A DNA stretch of 44,851 nucleotides, taken from IMG/VR virus record IMGVR_UViG_2974654489_000001, positions 1 to 44,851 of that record. One strand, 5' to 3'. The translations under genes were made by a program, and so were the position numbers. This DNA is from a virus. Taxonomy: Duplodnaviria; Heunggongvirae; Uroviricota; Caudoviricetes. Under the pieces are notes generated by a model. The model was not told where the DNA came from, ran no database searches, and worked only from the letters and a program-made list of their open reading frames with translations. This document shows, in pieces, positions 37,972-44,843 of the stretch. How positions within the stretch are numbered: position 1 is the first letter of the stretch; each line of letters starts with the position of its first letter.

Positions 37972-38000
37972 GTGAAAGCGAGTATAGGATAGCGGGAATG
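37972..38000 (-). promoter_or_regulatory. Leftward sigma70-like promoter (TTGCTT-17 bp-TATACT)
   Basis: Read on minus strand upstream of the HTH gene; coordinates approximate. Confidence 0.4.
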
Positions 38001-38055
38001 TAAAAGCAACCAAAACACTACACAAAGTTACTAAGATACAAAAGATGCTACTGGT

Positions 38056-38084
38056 GTTGACTTTTACTAAGAAATATGGTAAGC
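38056..38084 (+). promoter_or_regulatory. Sigma70-like promoter (TTGACT-17 bp-TAAGCT), paralog of the promoter at 6136-6164
   Basis: Identical hexamers and spacing. Confidence 0.5.
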
Positions 38085-38305
38085 TCAGCCTGAGCTTGTG
38101 AAGTATGAACAAGCGACCGCGGCGCGCGGCAGGCGAAACGAGCACGTGTAGCGTGTGGAGTGAGGCTCGCTAGCGCGTTTGGGAGGCCCAAAGTCTATTG
38201 TAATTCCCGCCTAAATATCTAAGTTACTGATTTGCCGTAGGATAGAACCGCAAGCTCACTCACTCACTCTTGGTGCCTTCGGCACCACGTTCGTTTCGTT
38301 TCGCT
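38085..38305 (+). ncRNA. Candidate leader RNA or small RNA (copy 2 of paralogous element)
   Basis: First 70 nt near-identical to 6165-6235; contains CACT x3 and CGTTT x2 repeats and GGTGCC-TTCG-GCACC hairpin followed by U-rich run. Confidence 0.4.
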
Positions 38306-38347
38306 CGCCACCCCCATTAAACGAAAGAATCACAACGGCAACGTAAC

Positions 38348-38387
38348 TAATCTCTTGCACACCCCGACATAATAGGATACTATTCAC
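38348..38387 (+). promoter_or_regulatory. Promoter cassette CTTGCAC-N7-CATAAT-AGGATACTATTCAC with AATAG-GATA-CTATT (38371-38384)
   Basis: Near-identical to the cassette at 15980-16016 in opposite orientation. Confidence 0.5.
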
Positions 38388-38417
38388 TTATCGCAACGAG
38401 ACAGAGGAGTGAGGGTT

Positions 38418-38606
38418 ATGTTTAAGAAGGGTCAGTTGGTGAAATCGGTAAATAGCAATTATTTCATTATTGAAAGCGAGTCTGCAGTTTTTCCGGGGGC
38501 TTATAGAGTAAGTTTTATCGGGGAAAAATTAGGCCGAGTAACTTGGTTCCGAGAAGACGAGCTAACACTCATCGGCAACAATTTTAAATTCAAAGGGGCG
38601 AAGTGA
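38418..38606 (+). CDS. Hypothetical protein
   Basis: ATG 38418 after GAGGAGTGAGGG RBS. Confidence 0.55.
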   Translation: MFKKGQLVKSVNSNYFIIESESAVFPGAYRVSFIGEKLGRVTWFREDELTLIGNNFKFKGAK

Positions 38607-38845
38607 TGGAAGAATTAATTTGCGTGAAAAGTAAATTATCGGAGTTTAAGCCAGGGGGTTTATATAGCAGTTATTCAACATCTGATTACGATTATGTTAT
38701 TGATGAAACAGGAGGCGAATGGGTAGTTGACCAGTTCGGAGATGATGAGTTCGGTATATTCGATGGTGGATTGAAAGCCTCATTCACAACGGCATCGAAT
38801 CATGATGCCCGTGCCGACGACTCTGAGGGAGGTTGCCGTGGATAA
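38603..38845 (+). CDS. Hypothetical acidic protein
   Basis: 80 aa, overlapping start and stop. Confidence 0.5.
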   Translation: MMEELICVKSKLSEFKPGGLYSSYSTSDYDYVIDETGGEWVVDQFGDDEFGIFDGGLKASFTTASNHDARADDSEGGCRG

Positions 38846-38905
38846 TTACCCGTTTATTTTGTTCGTCAGCGCCGTTTATGTGGTGCACGCGTTATGGGGG
38901 TTGGT

Positions 38906-39097
38906 ATGAGGATTCGAATAATCGACGTTGATTATGTTCTTCCGCCGGGTTATGGCGACCATTCACTGCGCTACTTTGGTGTCTCCGTCGGAGATGAGTT
39001 CGAGGCTATAACTTATAACGATTACGGGTGTGCCGTTGAGCATTGCGGGGAAGAACTGTACGTGCGTCGACGTGAATATGTGATTCTGGAGGACTGA
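38906..39097 (+). CDS. Hypothetical protein
   Basis: ATG 38906 after GGGGG RBS (track starts 38894). Confidence 0.45.
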   Translation: MRIRIIDVDYVLPPGYGDHSLRYFGVSVGDEFEAITYNDYGCAVEHCGEELYVRRREYVILED

Positions 39098-39100
39098 GTT

Positions 39101-39244
39101 ATGAGAGAAGCATTTGAACGCTGGGCCGTCGTCGAGGGTCTGCCGATTAACAAGGGTTCGAAGAAAGAGTACCTGAACGTTAAGACGCGTCTTGCGTGGC
39201 GGGCGTGGAAAGCGGGTGCGCAAGCTGTGATGAATAAGGGGTGA
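39101..39244 (+). CDS. Hypothetical small protein (47 aa)
   Basis: GGAGG RBS; below ORF track cutoff. Confidence 0.4.
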   Translation: MREAFERWAVVEGLPINKGSKKEYLNVKTRLAWRAWKAGAQAVMNKG

Positions 39245-39247
39245 TTT

Positions 39248-39445
39248 ATGGGCCAGTGGATTAAGTGTAGTGAGCGGATGCCAGGTGATTTTGAAGATGT
39301 GCTGGTTTCAGATGGGGTTAACGTTGAGGTGATGTGGCGGGACTGCGACGGTTTCTGGGATTCTTGGGCGCCACGTAACTCAAACATCGATACCGACGAT
39401 GTAACCCATTGGGCGCCGTTACCCGAGCCGCCATCGCTGGTGTAA
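39248..39445 (+). CDS. Hypothetical protein
   Basis: 65 aa, RBS AAGGGG. Confidence 0.5.
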   Translation: MGQWIKCSERMPGDFEDVLVSDGVNVEVMWRDCDGFWDSWAPRNSNIDTDDVTHWAPLPEPPSLV

Positions 39446-39477
39446 CAGGTGGTGTAACAGGTCAATAGGTTACTATT
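39437..39477 (+). repeat. Tandem direct repeat (GGTGTAACAG x2) followed by inverted repeat AATAG-GTTA-CTATT
   Basis: Read directly; overlaps the stop codon of the upstream gene. Confidence 0.5.
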
Positions 39478-42972: not shown

Positions 42973-42993
42973 TCTATTTTCTGCCATGACTAG

Positions 42994-43025
42994 TTGACTA
43001 TTACCTACGACCCTATTATATTTAC
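42994..43025 (+). promoter_or_regulatory. Sigma70-like promoter (TTGACT-17 bp-TATATT) containing the CCCTATTATATT motif
   Basis: Read directly downstream of the terminator; coordinates approximate. Confidence 0.4.
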
Positions 43026-43055
43026 TCCATCGACAACTAGAACGGAGTAGAGAAG

Positions 43056-43133
43056 ATGAGTAACTTCCATAACGAACATGTGATGCAGTTCTACCGCAAT
43101 AATCTGAAAACTAAAGGGGTGTTTGGAAAATGA
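43056..43133 (+). CDS. Micro-ORF (25 aa)
   Basis: RBS GGAGTAGAGAAG; ATGA-coupled to next ORF. Confidence 0.3.
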
Positions 43134-43270
43134 AAATCACAGATACAGAAGCATTCGAAGACGCGCAACTGATGGCACGCATCGCCGTTAGTAACCTGAG
43201 CAGCAATATCCCGGCGGACGCGTTCTGGGCCGCCGCGATGCAGGCACTAAAAGCAGCTTACGCAGGATAG
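43130..43270 (+). CDS. Hypothetical small protein (46 aa)
   Basis: Translationally coupled; alanine-rich. Confidence 0.35.
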
Positions 43271-43275
43271 AAGAA

Positions 43276-43443
43276 ATGAGCGAAGAAATTAGAGAACGAA
43301 GTAAAGTACTTCTACCGTTATGGGTGGGGTATAAAGTCAGCCACACCCCGTTCCCGACACGCGAGGAACTGATGAAACGTAACAGTTTCCCGGGGCCGGA
43401 CAAGAACAAGTATCTCAATCGCATGTGGGGAGAGAAGAAATGA
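43276..43443 (+). CDS. Hypothetical small protein (55 aa)
   Basis: ATG after GAAGAAATG; coupled to next gene. Confidence 0.4.
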   Translation: MSEEIRERSKVLLPLWVGYKVSHTPFPTREELMKRNSFPGPDKNKYLNRMWGEKK

Positions 43444-43649
43444 CGGATGTTAAACCCGGCAGCCTGTACGCTGCTAAAACAGGATTTGGGGAAATTCAAC
43501 AGTTCATTGTAACTGGTGTAGGGATTAACCATGTGCTGGTAGCGGACCATCCACTTATAAAAATGAACGATTCATATCTAGAGTACTGTGTGACAAGAAA
43601 AGAGTTCTCCGAGAAGTTTACTTTTGTAGGGGGTGTAGAAAGTGACTAA
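43440..43649 (+). CDS. Hypothetical protein
   Basis: 69 aa from ATG 43440 (track ORF from 43425). Confidence 0.5.
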   Translation: MTDVKPGSLYAAKTGFGEIQQFIVTGVGINHVLVADHPLIKMNDSYLEYCVTRKEFSEKFTFVGGVESD

Positions 43650-43815
43650 TAACGAATATGAAAAAGCATGCGTCGAATCAGCGACCGGTGAATCTGAAAT
43701 AGCGTGGATTGACGCCAACATCGAGCACTACTTACGGCAAGTAGACGTCCTTATGGAACGCCGCCGTGAGCTTATTAACCGCTTCAACCTGAACAAAGGT
43801 GACGCCAATGCCTAA
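43642..43815 (+). CDS. Hypothetical small protein (57 aa, GTG start)
   Basis: GGGGG RBS; start codon uncertain. Confidence 0.3.
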   Translation: MTNNEYEKACVESATGESEIAWIDANIEHYLRQVDVLMERRRELINRFNLNKGDANA

Positions 43816-44104
43816 AATCACAATAGCATCACTTGAGCGCCGTATTCTGGTGCTTGAGTCAGAGAAACAGACGTTAGGCGGGCAACTGTCAATTAACGGT
43901 GAGTTTCAACTGGAGGCGTTTAAGTTGTTACTTGAGCGCATGAAGAATGAAAACGGTGTAAGTATAGTAACCCGCACCAAAAACGGCGTACAGACTATAG
44001 GGAGAGCGTTTTTGAAAGAATCGGACGCACAGGAGTATAAAGCGTTTCTCTTGCGAAACGAACTCGGAGCTACGTACCAGATACGCCGCATTAGCGTAGA
44101 GTGA
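43808..44104 (+). CDS. Hypothetical coiled-coil protein
   Basis: 98 aa from ATG 43808. Confidence 0.5.
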   Translation: MPKITIASLERRILVLESEKQTLGGQLSINGEFQLEAFKLLLERMKNENGVSIVTRTKNGVQTIGRAFLKESDAQEYKAFLLRNELGATYQIRRISVE

Positions 44105-44109
44105 CTCCG

Positions 44110-44292
44110 ATGAAAGCGCCTGAGCCAGTAGTTATCGATGGTGTCCTGTGGAAACCATACTCGGTTAATCACATCGACGCCGACGGGAAGAAGTTCAGCT
44201 TCTATATTTTTGCAATTAGCCGTGAGCATGCCGCGTGTGTGGTCGACGATATACGAGAAACGGCGTGGCTAGGCGATGAGATAGTGGGGTGA
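44110..44292 (+). CDS. Hypothetical protein
   Basis: ATG 44110 (alternative GTG 44101). Confidence 0.45.
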   Translation: MKAPEPVVIDGVLWKPYSVNHIDADGKKFSFYIFAISREHAACVVDDIRETAWLGDEIVG

Positions 44293-44294
44293 GT

Positions 44295-44465
44295 ATGTTC
44301 AGTGACATTAACGCAGCAATTGAAGAAGCAATCTGGCGTCGTTACAACGGCGAGCAACAACGGCACTTCTGCCTGGTGCAACGGGGTAACATGATTGCTG
44401 TGGTACAGGACCGCGATAACAAATATCCGAATGCGATGTGGACAACGAGGAATTTCTTAGGATGA
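44295..44465 (+). CDS. Hypothetical small protein (56 aa)
   Basis: RBS GTGGGGTGAG; below ORF track cutoff. Confidence 0.4.
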   Translation: MFSDINAAIEEAIWRRYNGEQQRHFCLVQRGNMIAVVQDRDNKYPNAMWTTRNFLG

Positions 44466-44701
44466 TTACCAGCATTCCTAACCTGATTAAAGAATACGGC
44501 ACGATGGCCGAGACATGCCGACAAACCGGCATCAACGAAATGACGATTGCGAAGTACAGTAAAGACGTTGATTGTGAGCGCCACGTAATTTATAACAACC
44601 GTCTGATGACGCACGTTAAGACAAGCCCGGTGTTATTCACGCGCCGGGGTATCACTAAAACAGAGCAACGCATTGCTAAAGGGGAGAGCGGAAATGGTTG
44701 A
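44462..44701 (+). CDS. Putative HTH DNA-binding protein
   Basis: ATGA overlap; AETCRQTGINEMTIAKYSKD helix-turn-helix-like. Confidence 0.45.
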   Translation: MITSIPNLIKEYGTMAETCRQTGINEMTIAKYSKDVDCERHVIYNNRLMTHVKTSPVLFTRRGITKTEQRIAKGESGNG

Positions 44702-44843
44702 ATTCGATGATGCTTCATTTGAGGAGCACATAGACCGGGTTGTTTTAATAGTGTATTGGGGTTTTTACTCAAAAGCATTCGAAGGCGACACGAAAGCAGA
44801 TTGCATAAATCAATTACTGCAATGGGCCACAAGCCGAAAATAA
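44694..44843 (+). CDS. Hypothetical small protein (49 aa)
   Basis: Overlapping start; ends 8 nt before the window end. Confidence 0.35.
   Translation: MVEFDDASFEEHIDRVVLIVYWGFYSKAFEGDTKADCINQLLQWATSRK

Follow-up and report, generated by a model that had tools for sequence, protein, structure and literature searches.

The right arm of a 44,851-nucleotide (nt) tailed-phage sequence, IMG/VR record IMGVR_UViG_2974654489_000001 (the window, meaning that whole stretch), carries a dense block of small genes within positions 37972-44843. We consider it likely that this non-structural arm is mosaic, that its small genes are real and translationally coupled, and that they fall into about four sigma70 transcription units, with Stp, the anti-restriction peptide known from phage T4, seated in a slot directly after one of the promoters, P3. 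The block is of an ordinary kind for phages, combining accessory, lysis and nin genes, and it holds one overlooked anti-restriction micro-gene. When 37972-44843 was used as a megablast query, 533 phage records matched, nearly all of them Escherichia Kagunavirus and Salmonella Jerseyvirus (Guernseyvirinae). Because the best-matching records cover just 55-64% of this query at 88-91% identity, in 9-16 pieces, we read the window as the genome of a Kagunavirus (Guernseyvirinae) siphophage of E. coli with a strongly mosaic right arm. In the records of relatives this arm appears as long runs of 'hypothetical protein' together with a protease, two holins, a lysin and NinH.

The small open reading frames as coupled genes

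The gene model places 26 genes (g01 to g26; Table 1) on the plus strand between 38418 and 44843, where 93% of the bases are coding. Their products range from 20 to 183 amino acids (aa) with a median of 65; 22 of the 26 are shorter than 100 aa and 10 are shorter than 60 aa. Nineteen of the 25 junctions overlap or have a gap of at most 5 nt, in the form of five ATGA, one GTGA and two TGATG junctions, five 8-nt overlaps, one 23-nt overlap and, for the remainder, gaps of 0-5 nt. A Shine-Dalgarno core of at least 4 nt lies 3-12 nt 5' of the start in 22 of the 26 genes. On the plus strand, open reading frames (ORFs) of 40 aa or more account for 92% of the length, compared with 45% on the minus strand and 50±6% in 200 dinucleotide shuffles; coupled junctions between them number 21, as against one on the minus strand and 2.1±1.4 in the shuffles, where the maximum was 8. 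The original prediction of a dense chain of coupled small genes preceded by ribosome-binding sites is borne out by these counts, and the ORFs it listed, including those absent from the 60-aa track, all lie where it had placed them. Its list omitted the second holin gene (42137-42409), and it had the block begin at 37972, whereas 37972-38417 is noncoding and holds two promoters and a structured leader.

The prediction had also called for a conservation analysis across relatives, in which the frames prove to be conserved. Comparison with 21 related loci by tblastn found translated conservation for most ORFs, with patchy presence and absence; further loci (L106-L108) supplied context for g04, g06 and promoter P2. 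Pooled Nei-Gojobori ratios of nonsynonymous to synonymous substitution (dN/dS) lie between 0.03 and 0.5 for the 21 ORFs with relatives at 60% identity or more, and g07 is likewise low, which brings the genes under purifying selection to 22. Families were assigned with PHROG profiles and with Pfam at its gathering cut-offs. On this comparative evidence we take the small ORFs to be real, translationally coupled genes. A reading that treats many of the ORFs below 60 aa, including g11m (the 20-aa micro-ORF) and the Stp-like ORF, as functionless chance ORFs or decaying relics is very improbable. Such a view could draw on g11m, which has only three homologues and few informative substitutions and whose 20 codons would stay open by chance with p ~0.4, as well as on the rarity of g20 and g26. 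It does not sit with coupled junctions at ten times the shuffle frequency, with dN/dS far under 1 wherever an ORF has homologues, the stp gene at 0.03 against T4 among them, or with a PHROG family match for all genes except g06 and g11m, of which g06 has 32 homologues.

A T4-type Stp peptide after promoter P3

The first gene after P3, g17, encodes a 25-residue peptide whose residues 1-25 align to positions 1-25 of the 26 in PF08133, the Pfam model of the anticodon nuclease activator. It is identical to T4 Stp at 24 of 25 residues, with R25K and without Q26. At the DNA level the similarity to T4 begins at the ATG and stops at codon 24, the flanks being unrelated, and all substitutions but one are synonymous (proportion of synonymous differences, pS, 0.43; of nonsynonymous differences, pN, 0.019; dN/dS 0.03). 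Since the T4 homology is confined to the ORF and the divergence is mostly synonymous, the peptide appears to be under selection and to have moved as a minimal cassette. By homology, then, one product of the block, Stp, is a bona fide anti-defence peptide, and its gene falls below normal ORF-calling thresholds. The expectation that anti-defence proteins would be found here is partly borne out, by this single peptide; the block also encodes a peptidase, two holins, an endolysin and nin-type proteins. By class, the 26 genes include five lysis or peptidase genes, three nin-like genes and one gene that is anti-defence by homology (Stp).

The combination of P3 and stp is shared by only 11 GenBank records, representing about eight distinct phages (hz69, K1ind2, K1ind3, G AB-2017, Ro145clw, Ro145c2YLVW, ZCEC5 and PDP21P8). 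None of the Kagunavirus records inspected annotates stp, and a literature search found no paper connecting Stp with Kagunavirus. Beyond T4-like phages and Kagunavirus, Stp-like ORFs were seen in four Veterinaerplatzvirus (Drexlerviridae) records, and the 50-kb phage LHE71 gave a match that is weaker and partial.

Inhibition of the type IC enzyme EcoprrI by T4 Stp releases the tRNA-Lys nuclease PrrC, and T4 mends the PrrC damage to tRNA with Pnk and Rnl1 (PMC12707154, PMC1484252). The peptide described here, being near-identical to that of T4, would bind and inhibit EcoprrI-kind type IC enzymes soon after DNA entry and would shield an unmodified, restriction-sensitive phage genome; Kagunaviruses have been reported to be highly sensitive to restriction-modification (PMC11990801). 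Its presumed action early in infection is suggested by its place as the first gene after the near-consensus P3. The cost would be that Stp switches on the PrrC anticodon nuclease in prr+ hosts during infection by a phage that, judging by the annotation of Ro145clw, is without tRNA repair genes: no RNA ligase or polynucleotide kinase is annotated in this Stp-carrying relative, and all its ORFs of at least 300 aa are assigned other functions. The resemblance to T4 extends to near-identity over the full length and to the coupling of a tiny gene to its neighbour, as T4 stp is coupled to ndd. The setting differs, in that the gene lies in a 45-kb siphovirus with unmodified DNA and, again per Ro145clw, no Pnk or Rnl1, encodes 25 rather than 26 residues, and stands first after a sigma70 promoter in a variable slot.

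Variable slots and a putative 20-aa micro-gene

P3 is present in all related loci examined, including Salmonella Jerseyvirus-like ones, and its distance to the g18 homologue ranges among relatives from 34 to 302 nt. The slot between them may be empty, hold Stp, hold a 55-aa gene plus Stp, or be filled by another small gene (41-77 aa), of which nine or more unrelated kinds were seen; one of these encodes an acidic 77-aa protein that matches phrog_14587, 'anti-restriction protein', with E 2e-20. We regard this P3-proximal single-gene slot as a hypervariable accessory position. A second slot is the g10/g12 junction, which is empty in loci L004, L009 and L018, filled by other ORFs elsewhere and occupied by g11m here, and the position after P2, taken by g07, is a third. 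Across the genus, genes g04, g09, g12, the peptidase gene g13, the lysis genes, g18, g19 and g23-g25 behave as a core, and the promoter-proximal and inter-core slots behave as swap points for accessory cargo. The P3 slot resembles published accessory and anti-defence hotspots (bioRxiv 10.1101/2023.04.06.535777) in that a fixed P3 and a fixed g18 bracket one of many unrelated small genes and the cargo includes two families named anti-restriction; unlike those hotspots, which two flanking genes delimit, it is marked out by a promoter and takes one gene. In another phage the g10/g12 slot holds a free-standing 38-aa ORF (L006 4594-4711) that amounts to one zinc-ribbon-like module of the type found in g08.

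The micro-ORF g11m had been described as a 19-aa hydrophobic ORF at about 40984-41043; a hydrophobic ORF does exist there, and it spans 40983-41045 and encodes 20 aa. L004 and L009 lack its 63 nt, which run from ATG to TAA and separate the stop of g10 (TGATG) from the ATG of g12. By blastn the insert is found in only three other phages, phiSD1, SZH-1 and G AB-2017, at 87-90% identity, and their records all leave it unannotated; viral contigs scanned for an exact 30-mer gave no match, nor did PHROG or Pfam. All copies keep the 20 codons, with five synonymous and three conservative changes (V/I, S/G, I/V) and a TAA or TGA stop. This pattern is suggestive, though not proof, of a translated single-helix membrane peptide. 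We rejected the idea that g11m is a remnant of the larger genes filling the g10/g12 slot in relatives, because blastn shows it in just three phages, and that it is a lipoprotein, because its lipobox-like LMAC would leave a two-residue product.

Promoters, probable operator sites and proposed transcription units

Promoter P0 at the head of the block has a near-identical copy at 6137-6165. P1 and P2 are near-identical cassettes (TTGCAC-N17-TACTAT-TCAyTTA), with a third copy at 16015 on the minus strand, ahead of a minus-strand exonuclease gene. Each cassette bears the palindrome AATAG-N4-CTATT, of which the genome has eight copies against 0.08 expected, all in promoter-like contexts. Besides those at P1 and P2, copies lie upstream of g06 (39464), at 6041 and in front of four DNA-metabolism units on the minus strand. 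The palindrome probably serves as operator for a phage regulator that ties the small-gene units to the DNA-metabolism operons, in which case g01-g16 would form one operator-controlled regulon with the replication genes. P3 has no palindrome and is probably unregulated. The same motif has been given as 'phage promoters' in fBC-Eco01 (PMC9825357). We read these sites as sigma70 promoters plus operator, and not as promoters of a phage RNA polymerase, because the full gene list of the relative Ro145clw annotates no RNA polymerase.

With the terminators of Table 1, these promoters would set out four transcription units. The first would comprise P0, the structured leader and its weak terminator, followed by P1, g01-g05 and the terminator at 39491. 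The second would be g06 alone, an inserted winged-helix gene. The third would begin at P2 and take in g07-g12, the HslV-like peptidase, the two holins and the endolysin, up to the terminator at 42940, and the fourth would run from P3 through Stp and nine nin-like or functionally unassigned small genes to the terminator at window positions 1-22, before the terminase genes (the small terminase gene lies at 81-629; phrog_3064, E 2e-74).

This organization bears on the broader claim of the original prediction, that the block is typical of early host-takeover regions. A single early region of anti-host and anti-defence micro-genes spanning the whole block seems unlikely to us. The density of coupled small genes, the presence of Stp, the promoter/operator type that P1 and P2 have in common with DNA-metabolism operons and the closeness of P3 to the sigma70 consensus would all fit it; against that, a quarter of the coding length is peptidase, holin and endolysin sequence (41336-42875) inside the P2 unit, nin-type genes adjoin the terminase gene, three internal terminators split the block, and its head bears the same leader that precedes the late spanin and head genes. 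The sole Kagunavirus RNA-sequencing study, made on a relative and coarse in its data, likewise classes the divergent helix-turn-helix gene alone as 'early' and lysozyme and NinH as 'middle' (PMC12645636). We favor the mosaic of separate units over one uniformly early region.

A duplicated structured leader RNA

The covariance model finds exactly two copies of the GC-rich leader in the window, one after each copy of P0: the R copy at the head of the block and an L copy followed by a strong terminator at 6346-6365 (-17.9 kcal/mol), an Rz-like spanin gene at 6390-6776, and the scaffold and major head genes. The leader folds into four helices with 28 pairs, of which five are changed on both sides among 16 distinct copies from relatives; 97% of the leader cells are paired, a level that none of 500 shuffles attains (they give 90%), and sliding the partners lowers it to 32-47%. 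It is noncoding, because the copies differ by 1-2-nt indels and the frame is not kept; the same indels break the frame of a candidate peptide gene (MNKRPRR...), which was rejected. In phage Schulenburg (L002 1277-1552, equivalent to window ~38060-38330) two minus-strand coding sequences annotated 'hypothetical protein' overlie the leader and are probably spurious. A (CTCA)n run at 38257-38271, just before the R-copy hairpin, varies among relatives from about 2 to 6 units (L002, L032). Scanned against Rfam, 37300-44851 and 6150-6380 matched no family and yielded nothing beyond terminator-like matches below threshold, and a scan of bacterial genomes for the leader core returned only two short contigs of metagenome-assembled genomes. 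Within the phages, the leader is present in 179 records (Guernseyvirinae); the L copy is universal, and 41 of the 179 have two copies.

In its layout the arrangement resembles lambda PR'-6S-tR' and HK022 put. A constitutive-looking promoter, a leader of ~120-200 nt and a terminator precede lysis or morphogenesis genes, and, as with HK022 putL and putR, there are two copies per genome whose structure is kept by covariation. The likeness drawn here is one of layout, with no similarity of sequence expected, and the present leader is ~117 nt with four helices and not two stem-loops. We entertain as a tentative possibility that the block forms a lambdoid-style module expressed late or with delay: the leader RNA, or a factor recognising it, would suppress the terminators, transcription from P0 would then run on into the block, and most of the block would be co-expressed with the spanin and head genes. 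The recurrence of promoter, leader and terminator before the spanin, scaffold and head genes and again before the holin-endolysin block speaks for this, as does a leader structure that covaries within a lambda- and HK022-like layout, and read-through from P0 could couple the block with its holins and endolysin to late expression. However, the R copy is found in only 41 of the 179 leader-bearing records, so that in most relatives the block is expressed in its absence; P1, P2 and P3 are able to act on their own; no Q-like protein or other antiterminator was identified in this phage; and the hairpin of the R copy is a weak terminator. On balance we favor separately initiated units.

Lysis and nin-like genes

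The peptidase-like g13 resembles by profile the HslV family of N-terminal nucleophile (Ntn) enzymes, for which an N-terminal Thr nucleophile after Met removal is a family criterion; it scores below the Pfam Proteasome cut-off (17.9 vs 22.4 bits). Holins g14 and g15 adjoin the muralytic g16, as in a holin-endolysin cassette, and the most likely endolysin start is the GTG at 42387, after GGAGGA. No spanin gene adjoins the cassette, a terminator lying directly 3' of the endolysin gene; the Rz-like spanin gene at 6390-6776 (plus strand; phrog_2536, E 2e-57) is ~35 kb away, among the head genes. The stretch 43276-44701 is nin-like in predicted content, with DUF2737 and NinH-like members. We call g25 NinH-like only, because its score against Pfam NinH (PF06322) is below the gathering threshold (26.0 vs 29.8 bits). 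In g22 the N-terminal half alone is common to relatives, where the matches are partial. The block is comparable to the lambdoid nin and lysis regions (lambda/P22 ninA-ninH, S-R-Rz) in its ATGA-coupled small genes between replication and packaging genes, in its DUF2737, NinH-like and NinZ-like members and in its holin-endolysin pair. It differs in its inverted order, with lysis before nin-like genes, in having no recognisable Q antiterminator, in the displacement of the spanin to the head genes and in a NinH below the Pfam threshold.

Other genes of the block

Gene g01 is found in 14 of the 21 related loci at 32-70% identity, just the C-terminal part of g02 is common to relatives, and homologues of g04 bear the precomputed Pfam family PF26207. 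Gene g06 was found neither in the 21 related loci nor in L106-L108, and by comparison with most relatives we read it as inserted between P2 and the DUF551 gene (39446-39880). Its 32 homologues belong to the phages M01 and CR01, to Serratia phage JS26 and to Klebsiella and Enterobacter chromosomes, and the predicted structure confidently places it as a small winged helix resembling MarR-type domains. Gene g07 has no match in 50,697 GenBank phage records and was found in six protein clusters, at 81-98% identity, on 42-45-kb contigs. The C-terminal half of g08 (40350-40601) repeats a KEDAxEC-x-H-x-W...CxxCG module three times (EC-x-H-x-W...C-x2-CG, read from the translation), and its homologues in relatives are 117-158 aa long.

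The resemblance of g10 to Lar is weak (Lar-like phrog_3592, E 1.5e-4), and we rejected its identification as a Lar restriction alleviation protein (PF14354) at 13.6 bits against a cut-off of 28.6 and with one CxxC where two pairs are required. Gene g12, ATGA-coupled to g13, has a beta-beta-alpha unit at residues 43-78 in an AlphaFold2 (AF2) model of mediocre quality (predicted local distance difference test, pLDDT, 66), and its AP2 fold matches are nonsignificant (E 0.7-4). A firm call as an AP2-type DNA binder was dropped for these reasons, and we keep as a weak hint that it may be an AP2-like beta-beta-alpha DNA-binding protein. Searches of PDB sequences with g12, g22 and g13 returned nothing useful.

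Table 1. Positions in the window of predicted promoters, leader copies, terminators, operator-like sites and genes
Feature	Position	Strand	Support and remarks
Terminator closing the Stp-NinH unit	1..22	+	-11.5 kcal/mol, U-tract; upstream of small terminase gene
P0 and leader RNA, L copy (leader 6165-6281)	6137..6281	+	covariance model R1, 142.7 bits
Palindrome sites	6041, 15986, 28484, 32082, 34781, 38371, 39464, 39837		
P0(R)	38057..38085	+	TTGACT, 17-nt spacer with TGn, TAAGCT (extended -10); read from sequence; conserved in relatives
Structured leader RNA, R copy, ~117 nt	38085..38202	+	conserved; covariance model R1, 104 bits, E 1.5e-25
Weak terminator-like end of leader	38271..38287	+	GGTGCC-TTCG-GGCACC and interrupted T-rich tract; -11.2 kcal/mol, z -2.9
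P1	38355..38384	+	TTGCAC-N17-TACTAT, overlapped by palindrome AATAGGATACTATT
g01, 62 aa, function unassigned	38418..38606	+	phrog_12538 E 1e-13; AGGAG ribosome-binding site
g02, 79 aa, function unassigned	38606..38845	+	TGATG-coupled; dN/dS 0.44, 12 comparisons
g03, 63 aa, function unassigned	38906..39097	+	phrog_10916 E 2e-11, alignment starts at residue 1; 7/21 loci
g04, 47 aa, conserved	39101..39244	+	phrog_15836 E 1.5e-33; dN/dS 0.23, 16 comparisons
g05, 65 aa, DUF551	39248..39445	+	PF04448, 53.7 bits vs cut-off 22
Intrinsic terminator ending g01-g05 unit	39491..39512	+	-14.5 kcal/mol, z -5.8, U5 tail
g06, 76 aa, small winged-helix protein (predicted)	39583..39813	+	AF2 pLDDT 92.8; MarR-type matches, TM 0.67, E 0.01-0.1
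P2	39821..39850	+	TTGCAC-N17-TACTAT with palindrome AATAGGCTACTATT; conserved in L106-L108
g07, 58 aa, rare, first gene after P2	39881..40057	+	dN/dS 0.17-0.31
g08, 183 aa, coiled-coil N-terminus, three zinc-ribbon-like repeats	40050..40601	+	phrog_6094 E 2e-54
g09, 67 aa, N-terminal hydrophobic segment, highly conserved	40598..40801	+	phrog_3766 E 4e-35; 19/21 loci; dN/dS 0.15
g10, 59 aa, function unassigned	40804..40983	+	phrog_29624 E 5e-31; dN/dS 0.27
g11m, 20-aa hydrophobic micro-ORF	40983..41045	+	MGLIIVLSVLSVCMFLMACM; exact 63-nt insertion; GGAGG ribosome-binding site, TGATG and TAAATG coupling
g12, 97 aa, basic, strongly conserved	41046..41339	+	phrog_9632 E 9e-55; 20/21 loci; dN/dS 0.09
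g13, 146 aa, HslV-family (Ntn) peptidase-like	41336..41776	+	phrog_1040 E 6e-35; N-terminus MTTIAF
g14, 102 aa, holin, TTG start	41836..42144	+	phrog_2359 E 2e-29; relatives annotated class II holin-like
g15, 90 aa, second holin/antiholin	42137..42409	+	phrog_2508 E 4e-34
g16, 162 aa, endolysin (lysozyme)	42387..42875	+	phrog_33703 E 1e-48, phrog_7 E 2e-37; relatives annotated endolysin
Intrinsic terminator after endolysin	42940..42964	+	-13.9 kcal/mol, z -3.8, U8 tail; annotated terminator in phage Schulenburg
P3	42994..43022	+	TTGACT-N17-TATATT; 10/12 consensus matches
g17, 25 aa, Stp	43056..43133	+	PF08133, 70 bits vs cut-off 25, E 1e-19; phrog_6763 E 5e-20
g18, 46 aa, conserved	43130..43270	+	phrog_2180 E 6e-24; 17/21 loci; dN/dS 0.17
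g19, 55 aa, DUF2737 (lambdoid nin-region family)	43276..43443	+	PF10930, 39.1 bits vs cut-off 25
g20, 69 aa, rare accessory gene	43440..43649	+	phrog_20019 E 2e-27; 1/21 loci
g21, 57 aa, GTG start	43642..43815	+	phrog_1402 E 2e-19; dN/dS 0.19; relative's gene annotated NinZ-like
g22, 98 aa	43808..44104	+	phrog_9023, phrog_10200 match residues 1-49 only
g23, 63 aa	44101..44292	+	phrog_10509 E 5e-35; dN/dS 0.05
g24, 56 aa	44295..44465	+	phrog_5407 E 2e-25; dN/dS 0.03
g25, 79 aa, NinH-like	44462..44701	+	phrog_268 E 1e-30; relatives annotated NinH
g26, 49 aa, rare accessory gene	44694..44843	+	phrog_16162 E 3e-8; 2/21 loci

Discussion

Several observations weigh against reading the arm as a mosaic of separate sigma70 units with an active Stp in the P3 slot. 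About 15 of the 26 genes are without an assigned function, and P1 and P2 each have a weak -35 hexamer (TTGCAC) and went unreported in the consensus scan. Stp activity has been demonstrated for T4 only, and the peptide here is without residue 26 and carries R25K. The 'anti-restriction' label of phrog_14587 is an annotation and not a test, and the 'middle' class of NinH and lysozyme in the RNA-sequencing data of the relative points the same way. We nonetheless hold the mosaic reading to be the probable one.

Two of its features might be taken further together, namely that the leader is a new cis-regulatory RNA of the Guernseyvirinae and that the P3 slot is a dedicated anti-restriction hotspot; this joint proposal is speculative and rather doubtful at present. 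If it is true, the leader could be put-like or the target of an antiterminator and could activate the spanin and head genes; where a second copy is present, the block with the holins and endolysin could be activated too. Other occupants of the P3 slot, including acidic proteins of 62 and 77 aa, would be new anti-defence proteins, and g11m would be a functional membrane peptide.

An important consequence of these results is that ORFs below the usual calling thresholds in a common group of therapeutic-candidate coliphages are to be treated as real genes, and that a textbook anti-restriction peptide of T4 has been missed in them by annotation pipelines. A siphovirus that carries Stp with unmodified DNA and, as it appears, no tRNA repair would be a natural test of the 'double-edged' Stp/PrrC model, under which the expectation is escape from type IC restriction and abortion on prr+ hosts. 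The promoter-defined cargo slot provides a short list of small candidates for anti-defence proteins. The duplicated leader RNA may likewise offer a handle on the timing of lysis and morphogenesis in phages that, as far as the annotation of Ro145clw indicates, have no RNA polymerase of their own.

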